Of a stretch of DNA of 64,000 nt, positions 2,795 through 35,079 are shown piece by piece. The translations under genes and the position numbers were made by a program. The DNA is from an uncultured Pseudobdellovibrionaceae bacterium. Its GTDB lineage: Bacteria; Bdellovibrionota; FAC87; UBA2466. The notes beneath the pieces are model-generated. The model was not told the DNA's origin and ran no database searches. It worked only from the letters and a program-made list of their open reading frames with translations. The stretch lies in NCBI GenBank assembly GCA_964604555.1, contig CAZRZK010000001.1, positions 205,991 to 269,990 on the forward strand, written 5' to 3'. Position 1 is the stretch's first letter; each line of letters opens with the position of its first letter.

Positions 2795-2869
<75 letters not shown>

Positions 2870-4006: not shown

Positions 4007-4007
4007 G

Positions 4008-4081: not shown

Positions 4082-4115
4082 CCATTCGACTGAATGGGGC
4101 GCAGATTACCATCAA

Positions 4116-8781: not shown

Positions 8782-9930
8782 TCACCAGCCACCACGAATG
8801 ATTTTACAGATTCTGCGGACATCGTCAGTTGATACTTTGTGATGGATGGGAAGAACCAGATATTTTTCCTCCAGAGTATCCATGTTCGGGAGATTTTTTT
8901 GGCGTCCCCCAAAAATTGTATAGCGATCATTTCGATAATGAACCTGATTAGATTCGATCCCATGTTGATAAAGTTTTTTCTGAAGGTCTAGTCTACGATC
9001 TTCAACTGCAATGGTCGCTAGCCAAGCAGCGTGTTCTCTATCGGTATAGCTCGCGCCTAAAAGTTGAATGCCAGGGATGCCCTGAAGATGTTCTTTATAA
9101 GTGTGGAGTAGTAACCGACGGTGGGATAATATTCTATCAAAATCATCCAGAGCAGCTATTCCTAATGCTGCGGCAATATCAGTCATCTGATATTTATAAC
9201 CGATTTCGTAGATATCGTTTTCCCACACTCCCGCCTGTTTTGCCATCCGATCAATTCCAAACCACCGAAGGCGTTTTAGTTTTTCGGTGTAACCTGGATT
9301 GTTGAGAGTGATCATTCCCCCATCACCGGTGGTAAAATGTTTAATTGCTTGGAAGGAGTATATCGCAAAATCGGAGAGCATTCCGATTGGTTTCTCCCAA
9401 TATGTAGCTCCAAGGCCATGTGCGGCATCCTGGATAAGAGGAATTCCATATTCCGAAGCAATCATTCGAAGCTCATTCATGTCACAGGGTAGCCCACCAT
9501 AATGGACACAAACAATGGCACGTGTCCGAGAATTAACCAACTGCCTCACATGATTAGGATCGATATTTAAACTATGGGGTTGAATATCGGCAAAAACTGG
9601 CTTTGCACCGATATAGAGCAGGGGGATATTGGTCGCGGTGCAGGTAAAAACGGGAACGACCACCTCATCACCAGCAGATACACCTGCGAGAAGGTAGGCT
9701 AAGTGTAGAGCATCAGTACCCGAACCCACGGAGATGGCGGGGTTTCCTTGAGCAAAACGGGAACTAAATCTTTGCTCGAAAAGTTCCACTTTAGGACCTT
9801 GGCCGATCCAACGAGAGTTGAGGGTATGCGCCACTTCCTGGATACCACCAGGGCTAATATATGGATAAAATAAAACAATGCGATCAGGTCCTGGTTCCAT
9901 TACAGGCATATCTTTCTGAACTGAGGCCAT
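8782..9930 (-). CDS. DegT/DnrJ/EryC1/StrS-family PLP-dependent sugar aminotransferase
   Basis: SFQAIKHFTTGDGG lysine motif, overall family-typical sequence; start chosen at MASVQ (AGGGGGA RBS 5 nt upstream) rather than the ORF-track 9966. Confidence 0.85.
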   Translation of the reverse strand: MASVQKDMPVMEPGPDRIVLFYPYISPGGIQEVAHTLNSRWIGQGPKVELFEQRFSSRFAQGNPAISVGSGTDALHLAYLLAGVSAGDEVVVPVFTCTATNIPLLYIGAKPVFADIQPHSLNIDPNHVRQLVNSRTRAIVCVHYGGLPCDMNELRMIASEYGIPLIQDAAHGLGATYWEKPIGMLSDFAIYSFQAIKHFTTGDGGMITLNNPGYTEKLKRLRWFGIDRMAKQAGVWENDIYEIGYKYQMTDIAAALGIAALDDFDRILSHRRLLLHTYKEHLQGIPGIQLLGASYTDREHAAWLATIAVEDRRLDLQKKLYQHGIESNQVHYRNDRYTIFGGRQKNLPNMDTLEEKYLVLPIHHKVSTDDVRRICKIIRGGW

Positions 9931-9979
9931 ACGTTTCCCCCTGATCTCCACAGAAACAAATAGCAATGTTATTTTAGTT

Positions 9980-10942
9980 TTACCGAACGAGCACGTCCAT
10001 CGGATTCTTCTGCTTTAAAAGTGCTGATTCTAATATCTTATAGGATTCTTCCTCATTATCGAGGTCAATTTCACCTACGTAATGAGTTTGTATATCGGAA
10101 CTAATTTTAAACCAGTTAAGTGATTGCCCTTTTATCGAGAAAGTAGGCATTCTTCCTAGAAATGAACCCCAAGCGCTATACGACGAACCACCAGACCCTA
10201 ACAGGATGTTAGCACGAGTCAGGTTTATTAAATCAGTAATTGCGGCAGGAGATTTTAAGTGATGGGTATTTGGCAAGCTTAAAACTGGCAACAAGTCATT
10301 AGCGGTTCCATCACTGATAATAAAGGCATCCTCAACTTTTCCCAGTACGTCTCGAACCATTTTGAGGGTTTTGGCAAACCAAGTCAGCGGAGTTCGAACT
10401 CCTCCCTTCGTGATGAAGTCGGATTTAGTACGTGCATCTATGAAATCCTTTCCTCTTCGAATATTCAAAACGATGGGCAGTAATTTGGGGGATGTCTCAT
10501 CTAGTTTTAGGTATTTCTGCTTTGTGATTTCGCGAAGCCATTGAATGAGGTGTTTTTGATAAGGGACTAGATCCCCAAAGAATCTCTCGTTACCAGAAAA
10601 TATGATTTGTCCCCTGGGTAGAACCTGCTTTTCAAAAAAAGGTGAAAGTAACTCAGATTCATTCCAACGGGGTTTAAAATATTTTATCCACTCACTCTTA
10701 ATTCCCACCAAGTCTTCTTTGCCAGGTTCGAAATTATCGTAAACAAGTACTTTACGAAATGCGGTCGCATATTCAAATCCTCCTCTAAAAAAAGGCCGAA
10801 TGCGAAAGAAAAACCAGTTTGGGGCCACCATCGGGCAGTTGTTGACATGGGAAAAAATTTTGCAGCGAGCCCATGGGAAAAGCCGATTCCCTAACCCTGA
10901 ACTTCTAACCATTTCAGCTCTGCAAATCGTTAAGGGAATCAT
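9980..10942 (-). CDS. Glycosyltransferase family 11 (alpha-1,2-fucosyltransferase-like)
   Basis: GT11 motifs: N-terminal SGLGNRLFPWA (cf. GGLGNQMFQYA), NIRRGKDF (cf. HIRRGDY), C-terminal GSGGSSYSAWGSFLG (cf. STFSWWAAWL). Confidence 0.6.
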   Translation of the reverse strand: MIPLTICRAEMVRSSGLGNRLFPWARCKIFSHVNNCPMVAPNWFFFRIRPFFRGGFEYATAFRKVLVYDNFEPGKEDLVGIKSEWIKYFKPRWNESELLSPFFEKQVLPRGQIIFSGNERFFGDLVPYQKHLIQWLREITKQKYLKLDETSPKLLPIVLNIRRGKDFIDARTKSDFITKGGVRTPLTWFAKTLKMVRDVLGKVEDAFIISDGTANDLLPVLSLPNTHHLKSPAAITDLINLTRANILLGSGGSSYSAWGSFLGRMPTFSIKGQSLNWFKISSDIQTHYVGEIDLDNEEESYKILESALLKQKNPMDVLVR

Positions 10943-10955
10943 AATTACGACAGAA

Positions 10956-11441
10956 TTAGTCTAACATTTTTTTCATTTTAATACTTTCTAAACAGAGACC
11001 ATCTCTTTGTAAGGGAAGGTGGCTTATTTCTACAAAACCAATTTTAGTATATAAGCTCCTTGCTACTTTGTTAAAAGACAAAACCTCTAAATACAACGTT
11101 TCAAGCTCCAGTAGAGAACAGAGAAAGGGGATAAATTGTATAAAAGCCGCTTTACTTAATCCCTTACCCCTATGTTCTTTGGCCAGGTCTAACCCAATGT
11201 AAATAGAGTGATCTGCTGGGGAGTAATTCGATAGGCGAAAATATCCAACAGGTTTATTTTCCAATTGGATGATATAAAAATTAGGATTGGTTGTTTTAAA
11301 CCAATGAATACATTGCTTTAAGGTAAACTTTCGGGAATCGTGTAAAAAATGACGACACTCATTTCGTACTGAAAGTAAAAATGGAAGCTCAGCCTCCGAA
11401 AGTAAGTGGAACTCAAGACTGGGAAAACGAGTTTTACCCAA
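10956..11441 (-). CDS. GNAT-family N-acetyltransferase (start uncertain; ORF-track start 11519 would overlap ndk by 86 nt)
   Basis: GNAT core ...[36 protein letters not shown]...SLYTKIGF; candidate TTG start at 11441 overlapping ndk stop. Confidence 0.65.
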
Positions 11442-21090: not shown

Positions 21091-22665
21091 ATGATAAACT
21101 GGCTCTGTTTAATAGTGTTCAGTGTTTTCGCCTTAGCCGATGAAGCGCCGAATCCCAAAGAAGTTTACATCGAATCTTTCAGTCACAATGGTTCAGGTTG
21201 TCCGATTGGTTCGACCGCTTCCGTTCTTTCTGGGGATGCAAAAGCCCTTACCGTTTTATTTGATCGTTTTAGTGCGAGCACCGAATCGGGAAGTCGACGG
21301 GATTTTAAAGCCTGTTCCCTCGATGTGAAGTTGCATGTGCCTTCCGGTTGGTCCTTCGCCCTTTTTCAAACGCAAGTGCGGGGTTTTGCCAATATTGCGT
21401 CGACCAGCATCGGAACTCAGCGTTCTCGTTACACCTTTGGTGGTCAACGGCTTGCGGTTTTGGCAAAGCAGATCCCGGGCCCTTTTGCGGATGACTATAT
21501 CCATGAAGAGACGGCTCCCATCTCTTCACTTGTTTATTCTCCTTGTGGAGGAGAGCGGAGCTTGGGTGTGCTCACCAGTTTAGAATTAGACGGGCCGAAT
21601 TCTTTGATGACCGTTGATTCAACCAATGGCGAACTGGTTCAGAAATACCAGATGAACTGGAAACGTTGTACAGGAGCAGAGTCGATTGGTCCGGTGAATT
21701 TTACGCCGAACTTTTCCCAGGTGCGGGTGTTAGATGGAGATACGGGAAAAGATGTGGCCCGCATCCAAGCCTATGCGCCTGAGGTGAGGGGCGGAATGCA
21801 TGTGGCCGCTTGTGATCTGAATGGAGATGGCGTTTCCGATGTGGTGACCGGAACGGGAAAGGGAGCGCCTCCGCACGTCAGGGCCTTTGATGGGAATAAT
21901 GGTCAGGCATTAAATCATCCTTTGAGTAGTTTTTTTGCCTATGCCACCTCATTTATAGGTGGGGTGAATGTGGGGTGTGGAGATATCGACGGCGATGGAC
22001 GGCAAGATCTCATCACGGGAGCGGGTCCCGGAGCGGGATCGCATGTGATTGTCTGGAGTGGCAGAACCGGCGCTGCGATTCGAAGTTTCTTTGCCTATCC
22101 TAATTTTACTGGAGGAGTCACCGTCGCCTCTACCGATCTCAATCGAGATGGAGCGGCTGACATCATTACGGGAACGGGAGCAGGAGGCGGCCCCCACGTG
22201 AAAGTATTTGATGGTCGAACCGGTAATGAGATTCGGAGCTTCTTTGCTTTCGAGCCCAGTTTCAGTGGTGGGGTAAAAGTCGCGGGGGGAGACCTGAATC
22301 AGGATGGTTTCGGCGATATCATTGTGGGTGCAGGCCCTGGTGGTGGACCTCACGTAACCGCCTTTAGTGGAGCCACTCAACAAATATTACAAAGTTTCTT
22401 TGCTTACGACGTGAAGTTTACTGGGGGAGTCACTGTTGCGGTGGCTGATATGGACGGAGATGGAGTGAATGACATTGTGACGGCCGCCGGAAAAGGGGGC
22501 GGCCCTCATATTAAAGTGATCAATGGCATGACGGGACTCTCGCTCGAAGGGTGGAATGGATCCTTCTGGGCCTTCACTCCCACCTTTAGGTATGGAGTCG
22601 AGGTGGCGGCAGGTTCTCCTCGTCGGTTTTTCCTGGTGCCAGCGAGTGGAAGTGCTTATCGGTAG
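21091..22665 (+). CDS. Secreted protein with unknown N-terminal domain followed by seven FG-GAP-like repeats (beta-propeller)
   Basis: Signal peptide MINWLCLIVFSVFALA; seven roughly 47 aa repeats DxNxDGxxDxxxGxGxGGxPHVxxFxGxTG...SFFAY.. also visible as ~141 bp tandem repeats in DNA. Confidence 0.75.
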   Translation: MINWLCLIVFSVFALADEAPNPKEVYIESFSHNGSGCPIGSTASVLSGDAKALTVLFDRFSASTESGSRRDFKACSLDVKLHVPSGWSFALFQTQVRGFANIASTSIGTQRSRYTFGGQRLAVLAKQIPGPFADDYIHEETAPISSLVYSPCGGERSLGVLTSLELDGPNSLMTVDSTNGELVQKYQMNWKRCTGAESIGPVNFTPNFSQVRVLDGDTGKDVARIQAYAPEVRGGMHVAACDLNGDGVSDVVTGTGKGAPPHVRAFDGNNGQALNHPLSSFFAYATSFIGGVNVGCGDIDGDGRQDLITGAGPGAGSHVIVWSGRTGAAIRSFFAYPNFTGGVTVASTDLNRDGAADIITGTGAGGGPHVKVFDGRTGNEIRSFFAFEPSFSGGVKVAGGDLNQDGFGDIIVGAGPGGGPHVTAFSGATQQILQSFFAYDVKFTGGVTVAVADMDGDGVNDIVTAAGKGGGPHIKVINGMTGLSLEGWNGSFWAFTPTFRYGVEVAAGSPRRFFLVPASGSAYR

Positions 22666-23063: not shown

Positions 23064-23285
23064 TTAAGTTTTTTTCGATTTTTTATTTCTAAGAGAGTTC
23101 AGGAGTATAGTGGGCTCATCTTTCCGTTGATGATATGCTTCGAGATCGATGGCATCTTCTAAATGCTCAACCAGAGCTTTTTCAATCAAATATTGCAACT
23201 TGATGCCATGACGTTTGCAGTAGGCGGAAGCGGCTTGTTTGACATCGGCATCTATGATAGTCGAAAGGCTAACCGATCTTTTCAT
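23064..23285 (-). CDS. Orphan ribbon-helix-helix antitoxin-like protein (paralog of 20586..20819 family; cognate toxin missing)
   Basis: 73 aa; shares C-terminal E-D-x-x-DLEA-x-x-x-R motif with the antitoxin at 20586..20819; downstream position where a toxin is expected is occupied by the MITE-like element. Confidence 0.55.
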   Translation of the reverse strand: MKRSVSLSTIIDADVKQAASAYCKRHGIKLQYLIEKALVEHLEDAIDLEAYHQRKDEPTILLNSLRNKKSKKT

Positions 23286-23330: not shown

Positions 23331-24959
23331 TTGCAGAGGGAGCGGGTGGGTATGCCTATTCTAGGTTTATTCACGATATTAGTGCTGCTTTCATTCTGGA
23401 TCGCCCCCTGGGGAAACTTCCCCTTAAATGATGATTGGCAATACAGTCTGATTGCCCATCTCCTAGCGGTCGATGGGAAAGTGCGCTTGATCCTGCCGGT
23501 CGCTCCGTCGTTAGTGCTGCAATCCTATCTTGGGAGTTGGGTGATTCAGGGGTTTGGTTTCAATCACCTCTATTTGCGATTGCTCACCTTATTGATCTCG
23601 GCCATTTGGCTTGTCGCCATCGATTGGATTCTACGGGAGTTGCAAGTCGCTCCCCTTTTCAGATTTTTGGCAGGACTGTTGGTCATTCTTAACCCACTCT
23701 TTGTCCATGTTGCTTTAAGTTTTATGACGGAACCGTATGGTTTTGCTTTTGCGACCTTAGGGGTGGCCTTTTGGTTTTATGGACGTCGTTCTTCCCATTC
23801 CTGGATCTTCTACAATATAGGGGCGATTTTATTGGGCTTGTCCTTTTGGGTTCGGCAATTGTGCGCGCTCTATTTTCCAGCGCTGATTTTTGCGGAGGCG
23901 GTTTTGGCTTGGCAAGAAAAGCAGTTTTGGAAAAGAGCGGTCCAGTGGGTCCTTCCGAGTCTCTTGTTTACTCTCCTTGTGGTTGGGTTTGCGGTTTGGG
24001 TCCGTCAGACCAAGAATTTAACGGTCGCCTTTGAAGGGAATCTGGTGGCCCTGTTGATTCCCAATGTTGGGAATTTTATTTTACAGGGTTTTGTATTCCT
24101 GGTTTATGGAGCCTTCTTTTTCTCTCCTTGGCTGGTGCAATGGAAAGTTCCCTTCCAAGAAAAAAAATACCGATGGGTGTTGGGTCTGCTTTTCGCCATT
24201 GCGATTGGGGTCTATATCGGCTCCACAAAAAGGTATCCGATGAAGGCCAATCTCCATGCGGTCTTTCCTTTTTTGGGAAATGTGATGAACCCTTCCGGAT
24301 TGGGGCCGATTACCCTGACCGATCGATATACTAATGATTATCCTACCCAGCTTCCCCATTTTACGCCCATATGGATATTGATTGAATGTCTTCTGATAAT
24401 CGTTGCCCTCAATTGGAAAAGGGTTCTGCCCGCAAAAAAACACTTTGATTTTGTTTCTCTTTTTGCTCTGGGTGCCATCGGCATTCAGTTCCTGATTATC
24501 ACTCAAGCCTTTCAGCAGGGGATTATCGATCGTTATTTGATGGGGTTTATATTACCCGCGCTTTTGCTCCTGGCCCGAATATCCCATTCCCTTCATTTTT
24601 CCTGGAAAAAGGCTGCCTTTCCGGTAATTTTTTTGGCGCTCTATTCCTGGGGTGGAGAATATGACTATTTCCGGTGGAATGAAGTCCGCTGGCAGCTGGT
24701 TTCACTGGCACAATCCCAATCGATTCCCATGGATCAGCTGGATGGGGGATTTGAGGTGAATGGCTCCCTCCATTTTCAAGACATCCACGCCGATCCCTAT
24801 TCTGATCCCCTTTGCGGCCCGCAGAAAAGTTGGTTCTGCGGAGATCTGAAATATGGCATTGGCTGGGAACCCCTTTCCAGTCGGGTAATTCTAGAATCCC
24901 GCAAGGTGAACTCTCTCTGGGTCAACTACCCCGAGATTTTTCTCTATTCACAAAGGTAA
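23331..24959 (+). CDS. Polytopic inner-membrane protein, GT-C-like (ArnT/PMT-like) glycosyltransferase fold candidate
   Basis: 542 aa, at least 11 predicted TM helices, extracytoplasmic loop motif near N-terminus (NDDWQY); weak resemblance only. Confidence 0.4.
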   Translation: MQRERVGMPILGLFTILVLLSFWIAPWGNFPLNDDWQYSLIAHLLAVDGKVRLILPVAPSLVLQSYLGSWVIQGFGFNHLYLRLLTLLISAIWLVAIDWILRELQVAPLFRFLAGLLVILNPLFVHVALSFMTEPYGFAFATLGVAFWFYGRRSSHSWIFYNIGAILLGLSFWVRQLCALYFPALIFAEAVLAWQEKQFWKRAVQWVLPSLLFTLLVVGFAVWVRQTKNLTVAFEGNLVALLIPNVGNFILQGFVFLVYGAFFFSPWLVQWKVPFQEKKYRWVLGLLFAIAIGVYIGSTKRYPMKANLHAVFPFLGNVMNPSGLGPITLTDRYTNDYPTQLPHFTPIWILIECLLIIVALNWKRVLPAKKHFDFVSLFALGAIGIQFLIITQAFQQGIIDRYLMGFILPALLLLARISHSLHFSWKKAAFPVIFLALYSWGGEYDYFRWNEVRWQLVSLAQSQSIPMDQLDGGFEVNGSLHFQDIHADPYSDPLCGPQKSWFCGDLKYGIGWEPLSSRVILESRKVNSLWVNYPEIFLYSQR

Positions 24960-26636
24960 ATTGCCCCTCTTTGCGATCGCTTCAAGAAGTCCGGGCAGAG
25001 TGAATGTTTTGCGAGGGGTGGAGAGCTGTTTCTTGAGCTCGGTGATCACCTTCTCGTCAGTATTGATCTTTCTTGCCCAGGACAAAAAATCGATGTAGCC
25101 AGGCAGTTCGCCGAATTCATTTTTGAATGATTGGGTGAGTTGTTGCGGAGTAAAGTAACTGCGATCATGGTGGCACATCAGGCACATGTCGGCATGGGCG
25201 TGAGTGGTGATTCCTTTACCGGGCTGTTTTTCTTCGATCGTAAAATAGATCCCTGGAAAGAGGGTCTTTACTTTTCCTGTATCCATATGAATTTCATAGG
25301 AGAGGCCGATAAAACCACGTCCCATATGATCCAACTCTTTTACTTCCACTCGCACTCGCATGGCATCTTGCTGCGAGATTGGCTGGAATCGAATCATTCC
25401 ATTTTTTAAAGAGGCAAGATCCAACTCGAAGAAAAAGATAATGGAGATCAATCGAGATTGGACTTTTGAAAGCCAAACCACCCGCAATCCGGCGGCATCA
25501 TCTTGACTCGTCTCATATTTTCCTTGATGCCGTTCCTTGGGATCGGTAAAGGTCTGGTAACTGACGACGGCTAGGGGATCTTTGAGAGCATAGAAAAGGG
25601 CCGGGAGGATTTCCTTTTCCAATCCCTCTTGGAATTTTTGGAAAGATTGCACCGCTTGGGGCCATTCCCGTTCCCTGAATTTTTTAAACTCATTCCAGGA
25701 ATCGGCCTCACGTTCTTTATATTGCTTCCAGGAGATCTCTTTTCCGGGAGTGTATTGGAATGAAGAGGTAGGCAAAGTGGGGTCCTGCTTTTTCCAGGCT
25801 ATTTCACCTCCGAAGGTCAGATCCAGGGGAATGGCCATTTCTTCGTCCGATTCTTTGAATTGCACCCAGACTCGATAGTTCCCCTCCTTACTTACCTCAA
25901 GTGGGGCCTGAAGGAGCTGGATTCCCTTCTCTTTCCAGAGTTTTTCGGCCTCTTCGCGCGTCTTTTTTGAAAGGGTGTGGGCATGTCCACCGGGATGGAG
26001 GATATCCATCGCATGGGCATGTTCAAAAATTCGGCCATCTTGAGAGATCAAAATAATGTGGGCCGGTTCTCCGAGAAGGGGCTGGAGTTGAAATGCTTTT
26101 TTATCTAGGCGTTGTAATTCGATGGTAGTGGGGTTGGCCCAACCTGCTATGAGTGAGGCATCGATTCTAATTTTAGCCTCTCTTTGAAGGACGCTTCCTC
26201 TTTTCGACTCCTGAAAGGGTTTTATTTTTACCCCCGGTTTTCCCTCTTCAACAGTGATGAGTGCATTCGCCGCAAAAGTAGTTTGGGTCTCTTTGAGAGT
26301 GCCTTGAACCCAAAGATAATAGTTTCCTTTCGATTCGAGGGTGATGGGCAGAGTCCAATTTCCCTTTTCATCGCATGTAGGATGGAGATGTTGAAAAATC
26401 TCTAACGAAGTGTCGAATAAAAAAGCGTGGAGTTTGTACTGGTGAACTTTTTCAAGTTTTTCCAGGGGGACGATCTCTTCGTCTATTTTGTTTATCAGTT
26501 TAAAGGAGAGTTGCGCGGGGGCCGATTTGATCTTCCGTCCTTTTGGGAAGAAAAACTCAACCGGGGATTCCCCCTCCACGTGGGCAAAGAGAACGATTGG
26601 AAAGAGAATGAGATTAAGGATCCACAGCTTCAGCAC
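24948..26636 (-). CDS. Secreted protein with two tandem His-rich modules and a C-terminal CxxCH motif (last gene of six-gene operon)
   Basis: Signal peptide; repeated HxH...HP...GNY(Y/R)(L/V)WVQ pattern twice; HAHADMCLMCHHDRSYF contains CLMCH heme-c-type motif. Confidence 0.5.
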   Translation of the reverse strand: MLKLWILNLILFPIVLFAHVEGESPVEFFFPKGRKIKSAPAQLSFKLINKIDEEIVPLEKLEKVHQYKLHAFLFDTSLEIFQHLHPTCDEKGNWTLPITLESKGNYYLWVQGTLKETQTTFAANALITVEEGKPGVKIKPFQESKRGSVLQREAKIRIDASLIAGWANPTTIELQRLDKKAFQLQPLLGEPAHIILISQDGRIFEHAHAMDILHPGGHAHTLSKKTREEAEKLWKEKGIQLLQAPLEVSKEGNYRVWVQFKESDEEMAIPLDLTFGGEIAWKKQDPTLPTSSFQYTPGKEISWKQYKEREADSWNEFKKFREREWPQAVQSFQKFQEGLEKEILPALFYALKDPLAVVSYQTFTDPKERHQGKYETSQDDAAGLRVVWLSKVQSRLISIIFFFELDLASLKNGMIRFQPISQQDAMRVRVEVKELDHMGRGFIGLSYEIHMDTGKVKTLFPGIYFTIEEKQPGKGITTHAHADMCLMCHHDRSYFTPQQLTQSFKNEFGELPGYIDFLSWARKINTDEKVITELKKQLSTPRKTFTLPGLLEAIAKRGNLPL

Positions 26637-27258
26637 TTAACACCTTCCCCGATGTCGCCTCTAGTTTGATGCGAATCAATTTGGTTTCTTTGTTGGATCG
26701 AATATCTACTACTGCCGTTGTTGTCTTATCTTGGCTCTCTTTTTTCAGGGTGGCACTGTGAAAATCATTTTTATATGGAAGAAAACTCTCTTTTTTATCC
26801 CGATTATCGATAATCACGTGCAGCGCCTGTCGGGTAAGCGCAGAGGCATGCCAGCGTTTATTGGGCCAAGTCGGGGCTTCTCTCTTTTCATTTTTAATGT
26901 CAGAAACCACTCCTTTGTCATCTTTATCATCGTAAACCGGTTCCCCGGTATTTTTTAAAAGGACGGTCAATGTATTGGGTTGTTCCTTATCAGCCACAAA
27001 GGTGGAAAGGACATATTTGTATCCCACCCCAGCCTTTTTCTCCTCTTCGGCTGGATTGAGCCGCACCAACTTTTGGAACCCGGTCTTATAAAAAGCTTTA
27101 ATCTCTCCCACAATCGAAAGCTTTTCCATCAGGTGTAGCGCAAAGTCGGCTGCCTGATCGGAAGTGGCCGGAGACCCATCAGGCGCACGGGTATCGGGAT
27201 TCTCTTCGGAATAGAGGAGCCCTGAAAAAAGAAACAGGGCCAAAAGAAGTGGCTTCAT
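26614..27258 (-). CDS. Hypothetical secreted protein (operon member)
   Basis: Signal peptide MKPLLLALFLFSGLLYS; start overlaps upstream gene stop (ATGA). Confidence 0.45.
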   Translation of the reverse strand: MKPLLLALFLFSGLLYSEENPDTRAPDGSPATSDQAADFALHLMEKLSIVGEIKAFYKTGFQKLVRLNPAEEEKKAGVGYKYVLSTFVADKEQPNTLTVLLKNTGEPVYDDKDDKGVVSDIKNEKREAPTWPNKRWHASALTRQALHVIIDNRDKKESFLPYKNDFHSATLKKESQDKTTTAVVDIRSNKETKLIRIKLEATSGKVLSAEAVDP

Positions 27259-27647
27259 TCGGTTGCTCCTACCGGGAAGATGGGAATATCCTTGAGATCC
27301 ACTTTTCCGGAATCGATTTTCTGTTGGATGATATCCCGCAATGCCTCAGTGCCTTTCACCCTTGCTTTGCTAGTTTTTGCATAGGCGGCAGCTACCACCT
27401 CTTCACGTTGTGCTAATTGCAAGGCTTCCAGCGATCCCGATCCCCTTTGGTAAAGGTCCTCAGCTCTTTTTCGAATTTTAACTAAAATTTCATGGCTTTT
27501 TTCCCATCGCTCTTGGTTGGCTATAGCCACCTCTACTTGCGCTTTGTAGAGTTTAATGAAGGGATTATCTTCATCGGCACGCATTTTTTGGTGGGGAATG
27601 AGAATTCCTGCAGCTAAGAATAAAGCAATGATGGCCGCCTTTTTCAC
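27255..27647 (-). CDS. Hypothetical secreted helical protein (operon member)
   Basis: Signal peptide MKKAAIIALFLAAGILIP; coiled-coil-like; ATGA overlap both sides. Confidence 0.45.
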   Translation of the reverse strand: MKKAAIIALFLAAGILIPHQKMRADEDNPFIKLYKAQVEVAIANQERWEKSHEILVKIRKRAEDLYQRGSGSLEALQLAQREEVVAAAYAKTSKARVKGTEALRDIIQQKIDSGKVDLKDIPIFPVGATE

Positions 27648-28702
27648 TTTTTCTCCTTTAGCCTAGGTTTCAATTCTTCCAATGGGCAATTACTAGAGAA
27701 ATAATGCTGCATTGGATTTAAAATCAGGTTATGCGTAAAAAACCTTCCTTGATGAATGAGCTCGTCTCCGTCTGGGACCTCTTCGGCCGATAAAAGATCG
27801 GAAAGAATGTCATGCAGCAGATGGAGATTATCGAACACCACCGCAATCCGAGCGAAAAGCAGGGGATCCTTTTCGCTTCCCTTATAATAAGTAAATTTTC
27901 TGGCCGAGCTTTTCATTACCGGCATGCCGATTGCAAAATTAAGGCGACGAGGCAAGTTTTGAACTTTCTTTTCAAATTCCTTCACCACCGATTTTACTTG
28001 AGTAACTTTCATTTCCTTGCTTTCGGCAATCAGGGCGTCATAAAGCGCCATCTGGAACCAATGGTAGGTCCAGATGAGATCATTCATGAATGGAAATGTC
28101 TCGCTGAAAGTTTTAGAGAAGGTCACTCCTTCCGTTTTTAAATATTTATCTGAAGTGTCGATCTGAGGAATGAATTTGAGATCATCCATCATTGTCATGG
28201 AAAGGCATTTATCGGTAATCACGTAGAGGGGGTATTGCTTCTTATATTCTGTGAAAATGGCTTCGGCGCGCTCAATCATCTGTTTCGGTTCGGTGTGGGT
28301 CGCCATCACGTCATATAAGAATTGGTGGAGGTAGTGGGACCAATCGAAAACATTCACCGTCTTGCTAAAAAGACGGGAATAGTGGGGAGCGATGTCCTCC
28401 TCGAAGGATTTCGTGGCAAAATGGCGATTCAGTAATTTTTGGATATCGATCACTAATTCTTTATCAAGGGCTAAAAGCTGTTCCTTAGAGTATTTCTTCT
28501 TACTCTCTTTAATCTGAAGGAGTCGGGAGTAAAGCAGAGCATGGCCATGATCAAAGGCGAAAAGGTAGCTTTGCGCTTTTTGAAACTCCTCATCATTTGA
28601 GAGTTTGGAGAAGGAGTAGCGTTCAGGAGGCATCCCTTCCCAGATCACCCCCGCCTGTGCAAGCGAAGTCCAAATGACCAGGGATGAGATGAGCAATCTC
28701 AT
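27644..28702 (-). CDS. Hypothetical secreted protein (operon member)
   Basis: Signal peptide MRLLISSLVIWTSLAQA; 352 aa; ATGA overlaps. Confidence 0.45.
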   Translation of the reverse strand: MRLLISSLVIWTSLAQAGVIWEGMPPERYSFSKLSNDEEFQKAQSYLFAFDHGHALLYSRLLQIKESKKKYSKEQLLALDKELVIDIQKLLNRHFATKSFEEDIAPHYSRLFSKTVNVFDWSHYLHQFLYDVMATHTEPKQMIERAEAIFTEYKKQYPLYVITDKCLSMTMMDDLKFIPQIDTSDKYLKTEGVTFSKTFSETFPFMNDLIWTYHWFQMALYDALIAESKEMKVTQVKSVVKEFEKKVQNLPRRLNFAIGMPVMKSSARKFTYYKGSEKDPLLFARIAVVFDNLHLLHDILSDLLSAEEVPDGDELIHQGRFFTHNLILNPMQHYFSSNCPLEELKPRLKEKK

Positions 28703-29349
28703 TTCAAATCTCCATGCGGATGGTAAGAGAGTGCATAGGTATTGTGGATCCAGCGAAATTGGGGAAGGATCGGAGTTTTTGAAGCTAGATCCCGGATCTG
28801 GAATTCAAGAAAGGTCTCCCAGAGGTCATCTGAAACCGTGTAGTTCAGTGGATTAGTGTTAAATGGCCCCTTACATTCCGGATCATTAGCTCCCAGTTTT
28901 ACCATCAATCGGAAACGAGGGTAGAGAGCCGGTTTGGTCTTGTGAACATCCAAATTATCCTGTCCATCCACAAAGACGCAATCGAGGGGAACTTTCGACG
29001 AAGTTTCTCCTTTGACTTGAATATAGGAACCACTCTCATGAAGCAAAACCTTATCGGTCCATATGCGAACATTCGCCGTCAGAGGGGTGGCCATCTTAAA
29101 GAACTTTAGATTCTTTAAGGCCTCTTCGGTCCATTTGATCTCATATTCTACCTCAACCGGTTTCATTCCCGGCGGAATCCAGCGAAATTTTTTATGGGTC
29201 GGAAGGTTGGCAGTGATTCGACGATAAAATTCCTCTTTAGGCCGTTCCTTTGGGTTGGAAACGATCTCCTCATTGGGAAGCTCTATTGGGATGTAACGGT
29301 CTTCAGTGAAACCCTGAACTGAGAAAAATAGGAGGAAAAAGAGGCTCAT
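28699..29349 (-). CDS. Hypothetical secreted protein (operon member)
   Basis: Signal-like N-terminus MSLFFLLFFSVQGF; ATGA overlaps. Confidence 0.45.
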   Translation of the reverse strand: MSLFFLLFFSVQGFTEDRYIPIELPNEEIVSNPKERPKEEFYRRITANLPTHKKFRWIPPGMKPVEVEYEIKWTEEALKNLKFFKMATPLTANVRIWTDKVLLHESGSYIQVKGETSSKVPLDCVFVDGQDNLDVHKTKPALYPRFRLMVKLGANDPECKGPFNTNPLNYTVSDDLWETFLEFQIRDLASKTPILPQFRWIHNTYALSYHPHGDLK

Positions 29350-29684
29350 TCTTTGTTTGCTCCTTCTTTAATCCAATCGTAAATGGTCTGTTTGTCCCGA
29401 TCGGAAATCGGATCATAGCGCTTGTCCCTAGGGGGCATGGGATCATCCTCATCGATCAGTTTTAAATAGAGGGTGCTGTCTTTGGGTTTACCCGGTTTTA
29501 CCATCCCCAGTTTTTTGCTGAGGAGGGTTTCGTAATCCTTTAAAGGGCGTAATTTGGCCTCCCCTTTTTCGGAATGGCAGTCAAAGCACTGGTATTTGAT
29601 AAAAAGTTTCTGGATATCAGAAAAATTGGGTGCTGCCACAACTAATGGGCAAGCAAGCCCAAACCAAACCATCAAGCCCCGCAT
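29346..29684 (-). CDS. Small secreted c-type cytochrome domain protein (PSCyt1-like: CxxCH ... MPP ... WI..GA)
   Basis: Signal peptide; CFDCH heme-binding motif, followed by LRPLKDYETLL...KPGKPKDSTLYLKLIDEDDPMPP...IYDWIKEGA matching the planctomycete-type cytochrome c module; first gene of operon. Confidence 0.6.
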   Translation of the reverse strand: MRGLMVWFGLACPLVVAAPNFSDIQKLFIKYQCFDCHSEKGEAKLRPLKDYETLLSKKLGMVKPGKPKDSTLYLKLIDEDDPMPPRDKRYDPISDRDKQTIYDWIKEGANKE

Positions 29685-29720
29685 TAATGCACCGTATCAT
29701 TGTGAATAAAAAACGCAATA

Positions 29721-29790
29721 CCTAAGAAGGTTCATTGTGGTTAAGCCAGAATAGATCTTTTACATGACTGGTCAGCAGTAAAGTACGGGG
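29721..29790. repeat. Left 70 bp imperfect direct repeat bounding the TA islet; decayed duplicate of the SDR gene 3' end
   Basis: cctaagaaggttc...agatcttttacatgactggtcagcag... about 78% identical to 32561..32630; reverse-complement translation DLFWLNHNEPS* mimics SDR C-terminus DLFLFRLREPS*. Confidence 0.6.
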
Positions 29791-30218
29791 ACTGAATTTC
29801 GTACCTGTGGCAAACGAAAATCAGACTGGTTATAAGGCCATCACACTTGAATTGTTGGCATCAGCGTTGCTCTTCTAATCGCAGTGCCGAGATGGATTAG
29901 AATAGAAACGAAGGGTATGAAGCCTCGTTCAAAAAAAGGAAGATTTACCGAGCGATAAATGATGAAACAACCACCGAATTAAAGCTTGTTCGAATAATTG
30001 ATGAATCAGGATACTCTTACCTTTTTTAGAAGAAAAGTTTCCAGGGGCGAGCTCTGGCTGGCTTCTTCTCGGTGTAGTCATAAACCTTGCAATGGCAGTA
30101 ACCATTCTTTTGGGACTATGGCGGGTATTCGTCCCAAAGATTCTCTAAATTCTAAAGACATTCTTGCAAAGAATCCACGCTTGACCGATTCCTGATCTTT
30201 TAGGTGGGTTGGCCATTA

Positions 30219-30482
30219 TCATCCTATTTTGAGATTAAGCCCTTCGATACGAAGCTGATCCTGCAAGGCTAACTTTACAAGCCATTCGGGTGGCAGTTTA
30301 AGCGTTTTGGCTACCGACTTAGCCAGCCTAATACTGATATTGAATCGGTTTTTCTCGATATCGCACAACCTTTGCTTAGAAATGCCGAGTAGTTTGGCCA
30401 TCTCCGTTTGATTGAGCCCTTCCCCCTGACGGTGCACATTAATAAATTCTCCGAATGAAAGATCCTTTGTCCTAATAGTCAT
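30219..30482 (-). CDS. HigA-like antitoxin, XRE-family HTH
   Basis: 87 aa; HTH LNQTEMAKLLGISKQRLCDIEKN; overlaps upstream toxin gene by 11 nt; toxin-first arrangement typical of HigBA. Confidence 0.8.
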   Translation of the reverse strand: MTIRTKDLSFGEFINVHRQGEGLNQTEMAKLLGISKQRLCDIEKNRFNISIRLAKSVAKTLKLPPEWLVKLALQDQLRIEGLNLKIG

Positions 30483-30828
30483 GTTTAGTTACCTCAAGAA
30501 CCTCAATTTGATCAAAACCTGACTGACGATAAATGATTCGATAAGACCTGGAAAGTCGGACTGACCTCTGACCAAACCGCTTTCCCATCAAGGGCTCATC
30601 ATGAAACCCTTTGTACTTTCGAGCCTCTAGTAATCCTAAATATTGAATCATATCTACCCAATACCCGAACTTTTTGGCGATGTGCTGAGGCACACGTCTT
30701 AAAGATTTCTGTGCTCCTCCGGAGACTCTTATCTCCACGCAAACAACTCCTTTATAGTACGTATTTTTTACGTACATGTCAATATCTGAAAGTGATTTTG
30801 CAGGTTTTGCGCCTAGACTTAAGGGCAT
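30472..30828 (-). CDS. HigB-like toxin (RelE/ParE superfamily, plasmid-maintenance-system killer type)
   Basis: 118 aa; ...KRFGQRSVRLSRSYRIIYRQSGFDQIEVLEVTKHDY typical HigB C-terminus. Confidence 0.8.
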   Translation of the reverse strand: MPLSLGAKPAKSLSDIDMYVKNTYYKGVVCVEIRVSGGAQKSLRRVPQHIAKKFGYWVDMIQYLGLLEARKYKGFHDEPLMGKRFGQRSVRLSRSYRIIYRQSGFDQIEVLEVTKHDY

Positions 30829-31065
30829 GAACTAGCCGAAGGAGTTCAAATATTGGACTGCCCTGGCTAGTTTTCAGTCTCGAAAACCTTCTTTGTTTTA
30901 TATGAAGAAACTAGTTTGGTGCCAACGGCACGCCTATGGCAAGGAATGGCCATTAATTCGAAATGCTCACATGACTGATTCTCGGTACCTAGAGACCAGT
31001 AAATGGTCTCTTTCAGTTATCCCCATGCTTCAAAATTTGGCATCGACATTGCTCTGCTGGACATT

Positions 31066-31332
31066 GTGCCAAAGATATCCGAATTCTACGGGATCACTAT
31101 TTGAATGTACTGGTTCGACACCCAGAAACATAAGAAACCTCATTTTCATGCACGCTATCAAGGCCTGGAAGCTGTCTTTGACCTGGATGGAAATCCAATA
31201 AAAGGGGTGCTTAGCCCTACTGCAGCTCGTCTTATCAAGCAATGGTGCCAGAAGAATTCTCATGATATCTATGAGGCATGGGAAAAAGCAAAACAAGGCA
31301 AGGAACTCCCGTGGATAAGTCCCCTGAAGTAA
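31066..31332 (+). pseudogene. DUF4160-family gene interrupted by in-frame TGA at codon 13 (31102..31104); ORF-track CDS 31105..31332 is the downstream part
   Basis: Same frame: GTG-PKISEFYGITI-TGA-MYWFDTQKHKKPHFHARYQGLEA... matches DUF4160 N-terminal consensus MPxIsxFYGIxIxMY..D..PPHFHARY across the stop. Confidence 0.5.
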
Positions 31333-31346
31333 TAGTCAGTTTCGAG

Positions 31347-31589
31347 ATGCCGAGCTATGGTCTGGTTATTATCGATACCTCGAACAGGTTGCGATATCAC
31401 GCAGATTTAAGCAGCTTGTCCCAAACCTACTGTTATCCGAAGAATCTGGAACAGTGGAAAAAAGCCTCTATTGACTCTTATGGCTTAGCCCTTGTCTGGC
31501 AAAGTCGGTTTGAAGTTCACATCGATCAAATTATTGGCCTTGCGTCCAATACTGAGTCGCTCGGTAGCGCAAAGAAACATACCGGATAG
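31347..31589 (+). CDS. DUF2442-family protein (usual partner of DUF4160; putative TA-like pair)
   Basis: Start at internal Met MPSYGLVIIDTSNRL...; ORF-track 31278 start would overlap DUF4160 gene. Confidence 0.55.
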   Translation: MPSYGLVIIDTSNRLRYHADLSSLSQTYCYPKNLEQWKKASIDSYGLALVWQSRFEVHIDQIIGLASNTESLGSAKKHTG

Positions 31590-31845
31590 AATCTGTCTCA
31601 GGTTCGATCTTCTTTCTTTAGTCATATTGGCCATTTAATCCCGAGGTCCAGACTTCGGCTTTTGGAGACCAGGAATTGGTCTCCATTGGTTTGCGGTCGC
31701 GCTTGAATTAATGGTCCCGATATTGCTTCAAATGTAGGCAAGTGCGGACAATCTGAGGAATTCCCAGCAGGATTGCCAGGTTATCCGACAAGAGTTCCAG
31801 TTGCTAATACCAACTATAATTGGTATCATGTAGGGGAGAGAGTCG

Positions 31846-32022
31846 ATGCCGAAGTCGGGCAAGGAGATCTTGCGTTTGTATGAGAAAGAGGGCTGGAGAG
31901 TACTCCGGCAGAGGGGCAGCCACGTTATTGTTGGGAAGGGTGGCGAACGCGAAACCATCCCGATGCATAAGGAGCTAAAGAAAGGACTTGAGAGGTCGCT
32001 GCTCAAGAGGATTGGAAAATGA
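31846..32022 (+). CDS. hicA: HicA toxin (mRNA interferase, YcfA-like)
   Basis: 58 aa not in ORF track: MPKSGKEILRLYEKEGWRVLRQRGSHVIVGKGGERETIPMHKELKKGLERSLLKRIGK; stop overlaps hicB start (ATGA). Confidence 0.8.
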   Translation: MPKSGKEILRLYEKEGWRVLRQRGSHVIVGKGGERETIPMHKELKKGLERSLLKRIGK

Positions 32023-32450
32023 AATACCACTTCAAAATACATAAAGAAAGGCGTGGCTTTTGGGCAGAGTGCATTGAGCTTAAAGGATGCCAAACCCAGG
32101 CCGAATCTAAGGCGTCCTTATTGGAAAATATGAGAGAGGCTCTTAATCTTTACCTAGATGAGCCAGCTGACTCTAAGGCCATCTTTTCTCTTCCAAAAAA
32201 AAGCTGTCTTGGAAGAAATGTAGTGGCAGTTCCGGTTGACCCTAAAGTTGCTCTGGCATTTCTTCTGCGAAGACATCGACTCGAGAGGGGACTCACTCAG
32301 ACGCAGGCAGCAGAACAACTTGGGCTGCGAGGGTTGTATTCCTATCAGCGCCTCGAAAATTCTAAGACCGCGAATCCGGAATTCGAAACGATCATACGGA
32401 TCAAACGCGTGTTTCCTGAACTAGACATCGATGAGCTCTTGGCAGCATGA
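32019..32450 (+). CDS. hicB: HicB antitoxin with C-terminal XRE-type HTH
   Basis: N-terminal HicB/UPF0150 fold MKYHFKIHKERRGFWAECIELKGCQTQAESKASLLENMREALNLYLDE; C-terminal HTH GLTQTQAAEQLGL. Confidence 0.8.
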   Translation: MKYHFKIHKERRGFWAECIELKGCQTQAESKASLLENMREALNLYLDEPADSKAIFSLPKKSCLGRNVVAVPVDPKVALAFLLRRHRLERGLTQTQAAEQLGLRGLYSYQRLENSKTANPEFETIIRIKRVFPELDIDELLAA

Positions 32451-32560
32451 AACTTCCGCCGCTGTATATGTAAAAACGTGATCCTCCGGAAATTGACTTG
32501 TGTTGCAAAGATTGGCCAATGTTTAATACGACTGTTTACACATTCTAAAATTTGCCTAAG

Positions 32561-32630
32561 CCTAAGAAGGTTCTCTGAGTCTAAACAAAAAGAGATCTTT
32601 TACATTACTGGTCAGTAGCAGGCGTCGGGG
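32561..32630. repeat. Right 70 bp direct repeat (overlaps 3' end of SDR gene)
   Basis: Partner of 29721..29790; contains intact SDR C-terminal codons and stop. Confidence 0.6.
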
Positions 32631-33374
32631 AATAAAGCGGTGAAATCGGAGCATTAGTTTTCCATTTAAGGTGGGGAAGATCTCCAGCTGTTTTCGATTG
32701 AGACCTGCCAAAATCTCTTTGGCCACCTTTTCAGGGGTAGAGATAAAAGGGGCCATCCAATTGGGAAGGCCTCCCTTTTGCCCGCGTTCAATCATGGAGG
32801 TGTCGACAAAGCCGGGAGAGGCGAGCACCAGTTTTACGGGTGAATCTTTTAATTGGAGCTCTTGTCGTAGGGCCCGCGTGAAGCCGACGACGGCATGCTT
32901 GCTGGCTGAATAGGAGGTGAGGTAGGGACAGCTGATATGGCCTGCCACCGAGGCAATATTCACGATGATCCCTTTCCCTTGTTGTTCCATCTTCTCAATA
33001 GCAAGACGAGTTCCTAGGACCACTCCCCCTAAGTTGATCCGAAGGGTGGTTTCATATTCTTCGAAACTCTGCCGCATGAAATCGCCTTTGCCACTGATAC
33101 CGGCATTGTTGATCCATAGAAAGATAGGTTTGGCTTGTCCCGATATTTTTGTGATCGCCTCTTTCATCTGGGTGGGATTAGCAATATCAACGGCAAGCGC
33201 GCTGAAGGAATGGCCTTCTTTAGAGGCGGCGTCTTCTAAAGCAGCCAAATCTTTTTGATTCCTATCGAGTCCCCAAACATGGGCGCCCAGATTGAGGCAC
33301 TGGAGGGTGAGGCATTTTCCAATTCCACCAGCCGCTCCGGTGATCACCACTGTTTTTCCCATAAGTGATTTCAT
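32562..33374 (-). CDS. Short-chain dehydrogenase/reductase (SDR) family oxidoreductase
   Basis: TGAAGGIGKCL cofactor motif, NNAG, catalytic YxxxK (YSASK); 270 aa. Confidence 0.85.
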   Translation of the reverse strand: MKSLMGKTVVITGAAGGIGKCLTLQCLNLGAHVWGLDRNQKDLAALEDAASKEGHSFSALAVDIANPTQMKEAITKISGQAKPIFLWINNAGISGKGDFMRQSFEEYETTLRINLGGVVLGTRLAIEKMEQQGKGIIVNIASVAGHISCPYLTSYSASKHAVVGFTRALRQELQLKDSPVKLVLASPGFVDTSMIERGQKGGLPNWMAPFISTPEKVAKEILAGLNRKQLEIFPTLNGKLMLRFHRFIPRRLLLTSNVKDLFLFRLREPS

Positions 33375-34222
33375 AAAAATTCTCCCTGATATTGGGGCGA
33401 GCGCTCCAACCAGCGGGCCCCGTCCTGAGTCACCACTAAAATTTCCTCAAACTTCGCCCCGAAATGGGCGGTGCCTAGGTGAGGTTCAATCGCCCAAAGT
33501 CCTCTCATATCCCCTTCAAAATGAGGGGTCATGAGTTGTCCGAGCAATCCTCGGGAAAGGAGGGTCCAATAGGATTGCCAGCCAAAGTGGAACAATTTTC
33601 CCATCGGTAGTTTTTCATTCGTTTCATGCACCCGGTGGCCGAGCACCGAAAAGGGGTAGAGTTGGTGGACATTGGAGTAGTTTTTGGCCTTTAGCTTTTG
33701 ATCAATCGTCTTCCAGACATCTGATCCTTTGAGAGCCGATGAAAAAAGGTAGGGAATTTCATCCCGCAGCGATTTTAAAAAGTTTTTGGCGGAGAGGAGC
33801 TCCTGATTTTCACCCAGAGATCCGGTGTAACCAATATCTGCGATAAAACCCTGATAGATAGGGGCGACATCTAAAATGAAAACTTCGCCAGGGCGCAAGA
33901 CCCGTTTACTGGGAGCATATTCCCCATAATGGCGAACCCCTTCAAAGCGGGTACGATCCCCATACCAAACGAATGGATGGTGGAAGAAGGCCTTTACTCC
34001 AGAGTCTCGCAGGTAGGTTTCGATCAGATCGGCCGCCGCTTTTTCGGTCCAGCCTTCCTGCAACATTTTCGCAATTTCATTCACCGCCTGCTGAGCAAGG
34101 CGTTGCGCAGCCAGGTGTCCTGCCATTTTCGATTCATCCACCTCTCGATTGGCCGCCGGGGAGACAAGGTTTAGGACGGGTAATGAACCGATTTTAGAGG
34201 CTTGTTGAAAGAAAAGTTTCAT
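33371..34222 (-). CDS. M24-family (pita-bread fold) metallopeptidase-like protein
   Basis: Metal-ligand context conserved: ILDVAP..ADIGYT (D,D), GHRVHE (H,E), AIEPH, FEEILVVTQDG (E,E); 283 aa. Confidence 0.6.
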   Translation of the reverse strand: MKLFFQQASKIGSLPVLNLVSPAANREVDESKMAGHLAAQRLAQQAVNEIAKMLQEGWTEKAAADLIETYLRDSGVKAFFHHPFVWYGDRTRFEGVRHYGEYAPSKRVLRPGEVFILDVAPIYQGFIADIGYTGSLGENQELLSAKNFLKSLRDEIPYLFSSALKGSDVWKTIDQKLKAKNYSNVHQLYPFSVLGHRVHETNEKLPMGKLFHFGWQSYWTLLSRGLLGQLMTPHFEGDMRGLWAIEPHLGTAHFGAKFEEILVVTQDGARWLERSPQYQGEFL

Positions 34223-34224
34223 AG

Positions 34225-35079
34225 TTACGTCTCAAAAAATTTTTCTAGGAGCCGATTCATCTGCTCAGGGTTTTCGCGAAAAATCCAATGGCCTCCCGAT
34301 AGAGTTCGCACCGTTAAATGGCGGGCCTCTTTTTCCAATTCGTCGATGGAAGGGGGAAGTACGAAAGGATCCCGTTGTCCCCAAACGACCATTACCGGCG
34401 ATTGAATGGGTGGAGAGGAGAAGTCCCTCAACAGAAGCTGCTTCGCAAAGGAACGGTATTGGATCATGGGGTTTGAGATAAAGGGGCCTTTTTTGAGAAG
34501 CGGAGGCCGCTTTGAGGGATGGAGCCCCCCCATAAAATAGGCAAACTTTAAAAGAGGTGAGGCAAATCCCATCGAGATCTTTTGTGGAAGATAGGGAATG
34601 AGCATGGGATAGATATACCAAGAGTGGAGCCATTGAGAGGGTCGGCTTTTAGCACGTGAGCGCAGTTGCCCCAGGGAAAGGGAGTTGATGATCACCATCT
34701 TGGCGAGCCGCTTTTTTAAATAACCGGCCAATGCCCAGGCAACGGGACCTGCGAGATCATGGGCGACGATATAAACTCTTTTTCGATGATCGGGATCGAC
34801 CCTCTCCAAGAGTTGGAGGTAGTCGAGACATAAGGAGTTGAGGTGGTGGCGGGAAAAATTGGGGGTCTTTTCGGTCGAGGGGTGGGTACCAATCGCATAG
34901 GGACAGAGGACATGGAATCTCTTTGCAAAATATTCGGTCTGGAAATCCCAAACCTCAGGGCCATCGGGGTAGCCATGCAAAAAGAAAAGGATTGGCCCTT
35001 CGGTATTGCCCCCTTCATACCAATGGACGGGGAGCTTCCTAAAGGTGGCCTGTTGTTCTATGAAGGAATCCAACCGCAT
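34225..35079 (-). CDS. Alpha/beta-hydrolase fold protein (epoxide-hydrolase/haloalkane-dehalogenase-like)
   Basis: ILFFLHGYPDG oxyanion region, nucleophile elbow VAHDLAG, 284 aa. Confidence 0.8.
   Translation of the reverse strand: MRLDSFIEQQATFRKLPVHWYEGGNTEGPILFFLHGYPDGPEVWDFQTEYFAKRFHVLCPYAIGTHPSTEKTPNFSRHHLNSLCLDYLQLLERVDPDHRKRVYIVAHDLAGPVAWALAGYLKKRLAKMVIINSLSLGQLRSRAKSRPSQWLHSWYIYPMLIPYLPQKISMGFASPLLKFAYFMGGLHPSKRPPLLKKGPFISNPMIQYRSFAKQLLLRDFSSPPIQSPVMVVWGQRDPFVLPPSIDELEKEARHLTVRTLSGGHWIFRENPEQMNRLLEKFFET

Follow-up and report, generated by a model that had tools for sequence, protein, structure and literature searches.

The oxidation state of copper in the bacterial periplasm must be kept right, both in order to avoid toxicity and to allow the loading of cuproenzymes, and the known solutions to this problem are multicopper oxidases, CcoG and the PepSY_TM reductases. 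Here, we describe an operon of six genes (g1 to g6) from an uncultured Pseudobdellovibrionaceae bacterium, which is located in a 64,000-nucleotide stretch of contig CAZRZK010000001.1 (hereafter the window, meaning this whole stretch). The operon is real and partly conserved, is a member of no described system and may function in the handling of metal, most likely copper, in the periplasm.

In CcoG and CrpH (PepSY_TM), a redox cofactor, either heme or an iron-sulfur (Fe-S) cluster, reduces periplasmic copper for cuproenzyme maturation and thereby supports copper delivery (PMC13038864), and a comparable part is proposed for the operon described here. CcoG and CrpH are, however, membrane proteins with Fe-S clusters or b-type hemes, whereas the parts of the operon are predicted to be soluble, secreted and equipped with c-type hemes, and there is no sequence relationship between them. 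CuA assembly in Bacillus subtilis is aided by YtkA/CtaK and by the YtkA domain of YcnJ (PMC13344008). FixH/CcoH takes part in the assembly of cbb3 oxidase. Compared with these proteins, the last gene product of the operon, g6, carries two such predicted domains in tandem in its N-terminal module (N-module), with a conserved pattern consisting of histidines only; it appears to be soluble instead of being anchored by a lipid or in the membrane, it is fused to a probable heme c module (C-module), and its gene has no oxidase genes nearby. The N-module also differs from CopC, PmoD and CrdA, as it gives no sequence match to CopC, its other conserved ligands are different ones and a CopD-type membrane partner is missing. 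Finally, PSCyt1 domains (PF07635) usually form the N-terminus of large multidomain proteins, while the first gene product, g1, stands alone here and is fused to g2 at one other locus (L006, see below).

Gene structure and predicted products of the operon

The six genes run on the minus strand from position 29684 down to 24948 of the window, exactly as placed by the initial annotation, a note made earlier from the sequence of the window. Independent gene calls on a 308,097-bp contig of an NCBI assembly gave proteins identical to all six translations, those from the two GTG starts included. In the order of the operon, the genes are:

g1: 29346-29684, minus strand, 112 amino acids, ATG start
g2: 28699-29349, minus strand, 216 amino acids, ATG start
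g3: 27644-28702, minus strand, 352 amino acids, ATG start
g4: 27255-27647, minus strand, 130 amino acids, GTG start
g5: 26614-27258, minus strand, 214 amino acids, ATG start
g6: 24948-26636, minus strand, 562 amino acids, GTG start, overlapping g5 by 23 nucleotides (nt)

The earlier count of five ATGA overlaps plus one of 23 nt needs correction, as six genes have five junctions: from g1 to g6 these are ATGA, ATGA, GTGA and ATGA overlaps of 4 nt each, followed by the 23-nt overlap, which had been described correctly. Most of the six starts are preceded by a purine-rich, Shine-Dalgarno-like stretch. The operon ends with g6, which shares 12 nt with a convergent gene that comes next. A promoter and terminator scan found neither a sigma-70-like promoter upstream of g1 nor a terminator after g6, and the Rfam scan of the window returned two tRNAs only and thus no riboswitch upstream of the operon. 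Paralogues of the six proteins are not encoded elsewhere in the window.

Signal peptides, which had been assigned to all six products, were assessed by eye. The N-termini resemble Sec signal peptides and are canonical in five of the six, with a basic residue followed by a hydrophobic stretch. The N-terminus of g2 (MSLFFLLFFSVQGFT) lacks a basic residue, and the export of this protein is supported indirectly, by the long hydrophobic N-terminus of its homologue in a second locus (L010) and by the position of the g2-like domain of L006 behind a cytochrome c bearing a signal peptide. No lipobox or twin-arginine motif was seen by eye in any of the six N-termini, and nothing in the data points to the outer membrane, which the initial annotation had considered as a possible site of the system. 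The data support a translationally coupled array of secreted proteins, with a PSCyt1 cytochrome c as its first member and a CxxCH protein as its last; the description of its members as proteins of no recognizable kind has to be amended for g6, whose N-terminal 275 residues are predicted to form tandem YtkA/FixH-like domains associated with heavy metal or copper.

As judged from its sequence, g1 is a secreted PSCyt1-type monoheme cytochrome c. The motifs first noticed in it, CFDCH, MPP and WIKEGA, are all present, with CFDCH at residues 33-37 (encoded at 29574-29588) and MPP at residues 83-85, the latter likely containing the methionine ligand. The protein matches Pfam PSCyt1 with 28.8 bits at a gathering threshold of 22 and covers the full profile (1-59), and both CxxCH and MPP are kept in the g1 homologue of L006. 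The Leptospira LIC11213 lipoprotein family (NF047812), with which g1 has the cytochrome domain in common, is matched at 29.7 bits and hence below its cut-off of 100. A membership of g1 in this family was rejected on account of this score and of the missing lipobox: the sole early cysteine of g1 (C12) is preceded by G-L-A, unlike a canonical lipobox, and the leader is too short.

For the four middle proteins, in which no domain had been recognized before, the Pfam and NCBIfam searches likewise found no family at E <= 1 except noise, and g2, g3 and g5 have no sequence match in the PDB. Two invariant cysteines (C124 and C159) and the motifs GQDN and NDxxCxGPxN characterize g2, and the single fused polypeptide in L006 suggests that g1 and g2 act together. 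Queries with g2 and with g3 against a word-indexed set of 5.8 billion proteins returned only the queries themselves, which reflects the word index and not an orphan status, since homologues of both were later found via gene neighbourhoods.

The family of g3 comprises three members, from the window, from L010 and from plasmid 1 of Gemmatirosa kalamazoonensis (L013, about 9850-11160; 28-35% identity). Six histidines (H54, H123, H126, H214, H294 and H297 of g3) are conserved in all three, the histidine motifs being FD(H/Y)GHA, FDWSHxLHQ, YHW(F/M)Q and FDNxHxxHD, and two cysteines are common to g3 and the L010 homologue. In a low-confidence AlphaFold model from the single sequence, with a predicted local distance difference test (pLDDT) score of 40, the six histidines fall on four long helices. 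Together, the three sequences suggest that g3 may be a helical metal-binding protein, which provides a lead for its function. An identity as an HD-domain, hemerythrin or tyrosinase protein was considered and dropped, as the motif spacings do not fit and no hidden Markov model (HMM) supports it. The Gemmatirosa homologue bears a tail rich in methionine and histidine at its C-terminus; just upstream of it, a plausible signal peptide (MRTRRLLSVALSALGAAASGASPARA) lies in another reading frame, and this points to either a frameshift or an error in sequencing.

The product of g4 appears to be helical or coiled-coil upon inspection of its sequence. It is the least conserved member of the six: no homologue was detected, and the gene fragment at the equivalent position of a third locus (L002) gives no BLAST match to it. 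A resemblance of g4 to Spy/CpxP/ZraP-like chaperones found no HMM support and was set aside. The resemblance of the C-terminal end of g5 to PepSY (PF03413) is not significant, with a probability of 7.6% in hhalign against a PepSY protein and no Pfam match.

The last protein, g6, contains the CLMCH motif that had been reported for it, encoded at 25170-25184, and is composed of two modules:

25812..26582, minus strand: g6 N-module, residues 19-275, two immunoglobulin (Ig)-like beta-sandwiches of the YtkA/FixH kind (predicted)
24951..25790, minus strand: g6 C-module, residues 283-562, with a helical hairpin, an antiparallel sheet and a helical tail in the model

An exhaustive HMMER search of 1.84 billion representatives returned 737 relatives of g6, which fall into two non-overlapping sets. 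The first consists of secreted proteins of ~250-300 amino acids matching g6 residues ~10-275 and corresponds to the N-module, while the second, much rarer set consists of proteins of ~270-350 amino acids matching residues ~283-557 and corresponds to the C-module. P0007 is the only full-length homologue of g6 (38% identity); P0067, a repeat protein of 1140 amino acids, was discarded as a spurious match. The AlphaFold model of g6 computed with the collected alignment (pLDDT 80.9, predicted template modelling score 0.72) places the two beta-sandwiches at residues 26-131 and 156-275, followed by the alpha/beta C-module. A Foldseek comparison of this model with the PDB gave generic tandem Ig matches only, and the N-module profile has no relatives in the PDB at the sequence level.

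The N-module is linked to the YtkA-like family (PF13115) through its homology to proteins that match this family and through its predicted Ig-like beta-sandwich fold. Among 147 aligned sequences (g6 and 146 relatives), Pfam matches were obtained to YtkA (27), HMBD (10), Cupredoxin_1 (8), YHS (1) and TRASH (1), and single relatives of the N-module are fused to Ferric_reduct or DsbD-type membrane domains. In a clean realignment of 109 N-module proteins, the conserved residues are H65, H70, H83, H85, P86, H193, H206 and H208. H19 of g6 comes directly after the predicted cleavage site (LFA|H), and among the relatives with a residue at this position, 76% share it. The genomic contexts of the relatives point in a similar direction. 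An Oligoflexia metagenome-assembled genome (MAG) encodes, within 9 kb, an N-module relative together with MerR, a YHS/HMBD P-type ATPase, a multicopper oxidase, a Met/His-rich protein and a YtkA protein; on Rhodococcus and Tsukamurella plasmids, the relative lies directly upstream of P1B ATPases with HMA proteins alongside; and on a Legionella plasmid it lies near CusA. The relative on a Priestia plasmid has no copper or heavy-metal context. The link of the N-module family to copper or heavy metal is thus reasonably supported, by domain fusions, by the genomic contexts of its relatives and by the role of YtkA/CtaK.

The C-module probably represents a new, rare and unannotated family of monoheme c-type cytochrome domains. 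The CxxCH motif as well as D, G, R, D, R, S and Y positions are invariant in all 14 C-module sequences. The family has no significant Pfam match, one member giving a sub-threshold match to Cytochrome_CBB3 (0.012), and the comparison of its profile with PDB sequences gave sub-threshold monoheme cytochromes only (OmcF and c6, E about 0.7), around the CxxCH motif. A search of the 5.8-billion-protein set with the C-module profile returned at least two proteins, and one member of the family is annotated as coming from a Bdellovibrionales MAG. In the MAFFT alignment of g6 with 146 relatives (A3), the second domain of most stand-alone N-module proteins was misplaced onto the columns of the C-module. 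A "nearly invariant H489" seen in this alignment is an artefact, which arose where the HxHP of N-module proteins fell on the histidine of CxxCH.

Recurrence of the genes in subsets

The genes form a partly conserved module, which recurs in subsets rather than as a fixed six-gene system. The initial annotation had made its interpretation depend on whether the middle proteins would match well-characterised families of unrelated function and on whether the genes are conserved together. None of the middle proteins matches a characterised family, and three independent loci each contain a subset of the genes together; however, no other locus with all six genes was found. The three loci are the following:

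L002/L004, metagenome contig of 3.6 kb: a g5 homologue (30% identity, E 5e-21) directly upstream of a full-length g6 homologue (38%) and overlapping its start
L010, contig of 13 kb: g2-like gene (29%, E 1.5e-16), g3-like gene (36%, E 5e-61) and N-terminus of a g5-like gene (E 0.003)
L006, contig of 1.8 kb from a MAG: open reading frame (ORF) with a fusion of g1-like and g2-like parts (30%, E 2e-9 for g2), divergent from a stand-alone C-module gene

In L010, the g2-like, g3-like and g5-like genes follow the order of the window, with g4 absent between g3 and the g5-like fragment, and they are divergent from a stand-alone N-module gene. The g3 homologue at this locus makes g3 the best-conserved of the middle genes. 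Next to the N-module gene (2850-4703), L010 also encodes a YceI-domain protein and a protein of 361 amino acids with an N-terminal CTACH and weak matches to outer-membrane beta-barrels, which may be a fused cytochrome-porin of the Cyc2 kind. The fusion in L006 is a continuous ORF (1-822, minus strand), in which a PSCyt1-like cytochrome c is joined to the g2-like domain by a linker rich in proline, glycine and serine. The contig carrying P0008 shows a divergent layout as in L006.

The presence of g1 and of the C-module co-varies: the window and L006 have both, and L010 has neither. The flanks of L010 were sampled throughout, apart from the region past the truncated g5-like gene at the end of the contig. 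L002 is cut just upstream of its genes and was therefore excluded from this comparison. Two scans of GTDB representative genomes found nothing, and a metagenome scan yielded two short contigs only. Distant C-module genes (L007 and L009) have no linkage to g1 to g5, most of the N-module relatives examined have no g2, g3 or g5 nearby, and the g3 homologue of Gemmatirosa has none of the other genes within 10 kb, in a neighbourhood that offers no functional clue.

A possible role in periplasmic metal handling

Our preferred reading, which is a tentative one, is that the operon encodes a redox module of Bdellovibrionota/Oligoflexia-like bacteria that handles metal, most likely copper, in the periplasm. 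Following their predicted export, the products might assemble into a physical complex. The ligands of copper would be the histidine clusters in the YtkA/FixH-like tandem of g6, including the N-terminal histidine that would be exposed by cleavage of the signal peptide. The heme presumably attached to the C-module would then shift the oxidation state of the bound copper, from Cu(II) to Cu(I) or the reverse depending on the direction of electron flow, and could trade electrons with the small soluble cytochrome c g1. The protein g2 would serve as the docking partner of g1, a role suggested by the presence of both in one polypeptide in another organism. With its predicted helices and six conserved histidines, g3 is a candidate metal acceptor or metalloenzyme, and g5 and g4 may be accessory proteins.

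A bolder version of this proposal sees in the operon a new soluble periplasmic heme-copper redox system, in which a monoheme c domain of new fold is combined with a tandem His-rich copper module, a cytochrome c with its docking protein and a four-helix, six-histidine g3. Such a system would oxidise or reduce copper, or use a binuclear copper centre catalytically, independently of multicopper oxidases and of CcoG- and PepSY_TM-type reductases. We regard this version as somewhat unlikely. The fusion of a soluble c-type heme to a YtkA/FixH-like module would represent a different way of linking copper chemistry to the cytochrome pool of respiration. In addition, several unannotated families (g2, g3, g5 and the C-module of g6) are defined by the locus, which provides them with a testable context. 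The host lineage of the operon is apparently uncultured; cultured carriers of single parts, namely Gemmatirosa kalamazoonensis for g3 and Rhodococcus, Priestia and Legionella for the N-module, open parts of the hypothesis to experiment.

Several observations weigh against a copper-handling redox module. At the level of the single proteins, g6 itself lies below every Pfam threshold, including that of YtkA (no match at E <= 0.01, and noise at E <= 1), and g2 has no conserved histidine, no conserved methionine and no free cysteine. Of the features of class I c-type cytochromes, the C-module shows the CxxCH motif and lacks both a significant family match and a conserved sixth ligand, as neither a conserved methionine nor a second conserved histidine occurs in the 14 sequences. 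Its model is also less secure than its pLDDT suggests, because the input to AlphaFold was contaminated by the misalignment in A3, and the model of g3, at a pLDDT of 40, is unusable. At the level of the locus, the Pfam and NCBIfam scans, which covered most of the larger ORFs of the window, revealed no copper ATPase, CueR/CsoR regulator, multicopper oxidase, cuproenzyme or transporter near the operon, and the evidence for linkage consists of three short metagenomic contigs.

The same genes can be read with g3 instead of g6 at the centre, as a periplasmic oxidoreductase whose catalytic subunit would be a four-helix, six-histidine g3 with a binuclear di-copper or di-iron site, supplied with electrons by g1 and the heme of g6, while the N-module would do no more than load g3. 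The six histidines, present in all three sequences of the g3 family and placed on four long predicted helices, are in line with this reading, as are the conservation of g3 above that of the other middle genes, the co-variation of the two cytochromes and the function of YtkA-type proteins as copper chaperones for enzyme assembly (PMC13344008). However, the histidine pattern rests on three sequences, its spacing is unlike the known signatures of hemerythrin, tyrosinase or ferritin-like proteins, g3 matches nothing in Pfam, and it occurs without g1 or the C-module in L010 and without any partner in Gemmatirosa. We consider an oxidoreductase built around g3 unlikely. The identity of the metal is a separate matter. 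An iron system, analogous to P19/FetP-Ftr or Tp34/HftA, would act on periplasmic iron by oxidation, reduction or capture, and the cytochromes would carry electrons to or from it; yet the recognisable fusion partners and neighbours of the N-module are those of copper or heavy metals (HMBD, YHS, cupredoxin, HMA, P1B ATPases and multicopper oxidase), and neither an Ftr1/EfeU-type permease nor a Fur-type gene was seen near the operon, which makes iron quite improbable.

It is also conceivable that the six secreted proteins are co-transcribed without any common redox or metal function, for instance as envelope or predation-related factors which include two cytochromes by chance. Four products without a recognisable domain and the failure to find the six genes together elsewhere would agree with such an assortment, and so would the richness of the lineage in orphan secreted proteins and the fact that each of the six products forms a singleton cluster at 90% identity. 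The fusion of g1 with g2, together with the repeated adjacency of g2, g3, g5 and g6 modules at 28-41% identity and in varied arrangements, argues for a functional linkage instead, and we regard a chance assortment as very improbable.

The toxin-antitoxin islet and neighbouring genes

The initial annotation had placed the insertion of a toxin-antitoxin islet at the start of the operon, and this was borne out by a 76-nt direct repeat which brackets the islet between g1 and a short-chain dehydrogenase gene:

29721..29796, no strand assigned: left repeat copy of 76 nt, which represents a displaced pseudo-3' end of the dehydrogenase gene
29797..32560, no strand assigned: inserted islet of 2.8 kb with small toxin-antitoxin-like genes, between the operon and the dehydrogenase gene
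32561..32636, no strand assigned: right repeat copy of 76 nt, which serves as the functional 3' end of the dehydrogenase gene (32562-33374, minus strand)

The repeat is an imperfect one, its two copies being 75% identical. The left copy translates as FSPRTLLLTSHVKDLFWLNHNEPS, a diverged duplicate of the real C-terminus FIPRRLLLTSNVKDLFLFRLREPS of the dehydrogenase, and its stop codon precedes the ATG of g1 by 37 nt. Since the left copy is a duplicate of the 3' end of the dehydrogenase gene and ends at this distance, g1 directly followed this gene before the insertion. The islet contains a ParE/RelE gene (30472-30828) with a helix-turn-helix (HTH) gene (30219-30482), a DUF4160 gene (31105-31332) with an ORF at 31278-31589, and a gene for an HTH protein (32019-32450). 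The first two overlap by 11 nt and match ParE_toxin (24.2 bits, threshold 23) and HTH_3 (39.5, threshold 23) in Pfam, as is characteristic of a type II toxin-antitoxin pair. The ORF list shows no ORF of the size of an integrase in the islet. Upstream of the islet and on the strand of the operon (32562-35079, minus strand), three genes for an alpha/beta hydrolase, an M24-type peptidase-like protein and the short-chain dehydrogenase are tightly packed, and these may have been co-transcribed with g1 to g6 before the islet was inserted.

On the other side of the operon, the gene convergent with g6 and overlapping it by 12 nt (23331-24959, plus strand) encodes a protein of 542 amino acids that has no Pfam match and, judging by its many hydrophobic stretches, appears to be a polytopic membrane protein. 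A lone DUF6290 antitoxin-like gene of 73 amino acids (23064-23285, minus strand), with no obvious toxin partner, adds one more small gene of the toxin-antitoxin kind around the operon. Further away, the product of 21091-22665 (plus strand) combines a hydrophobic, signal-like N-terminus with DUF4360 and five FG-GAP repeats. Outside the operon, a single ORF of the window among those of at least 80 codons contains CxxCH. It is located at 45385-47901 on the plus strand and encodes a protein of 838 amino acids with two such motifs, a cytochrome c domain (Cytochrome_CBB3) at the N-terminus and an FGE-sulfatase/PvdO-like domain at the C-terminus.

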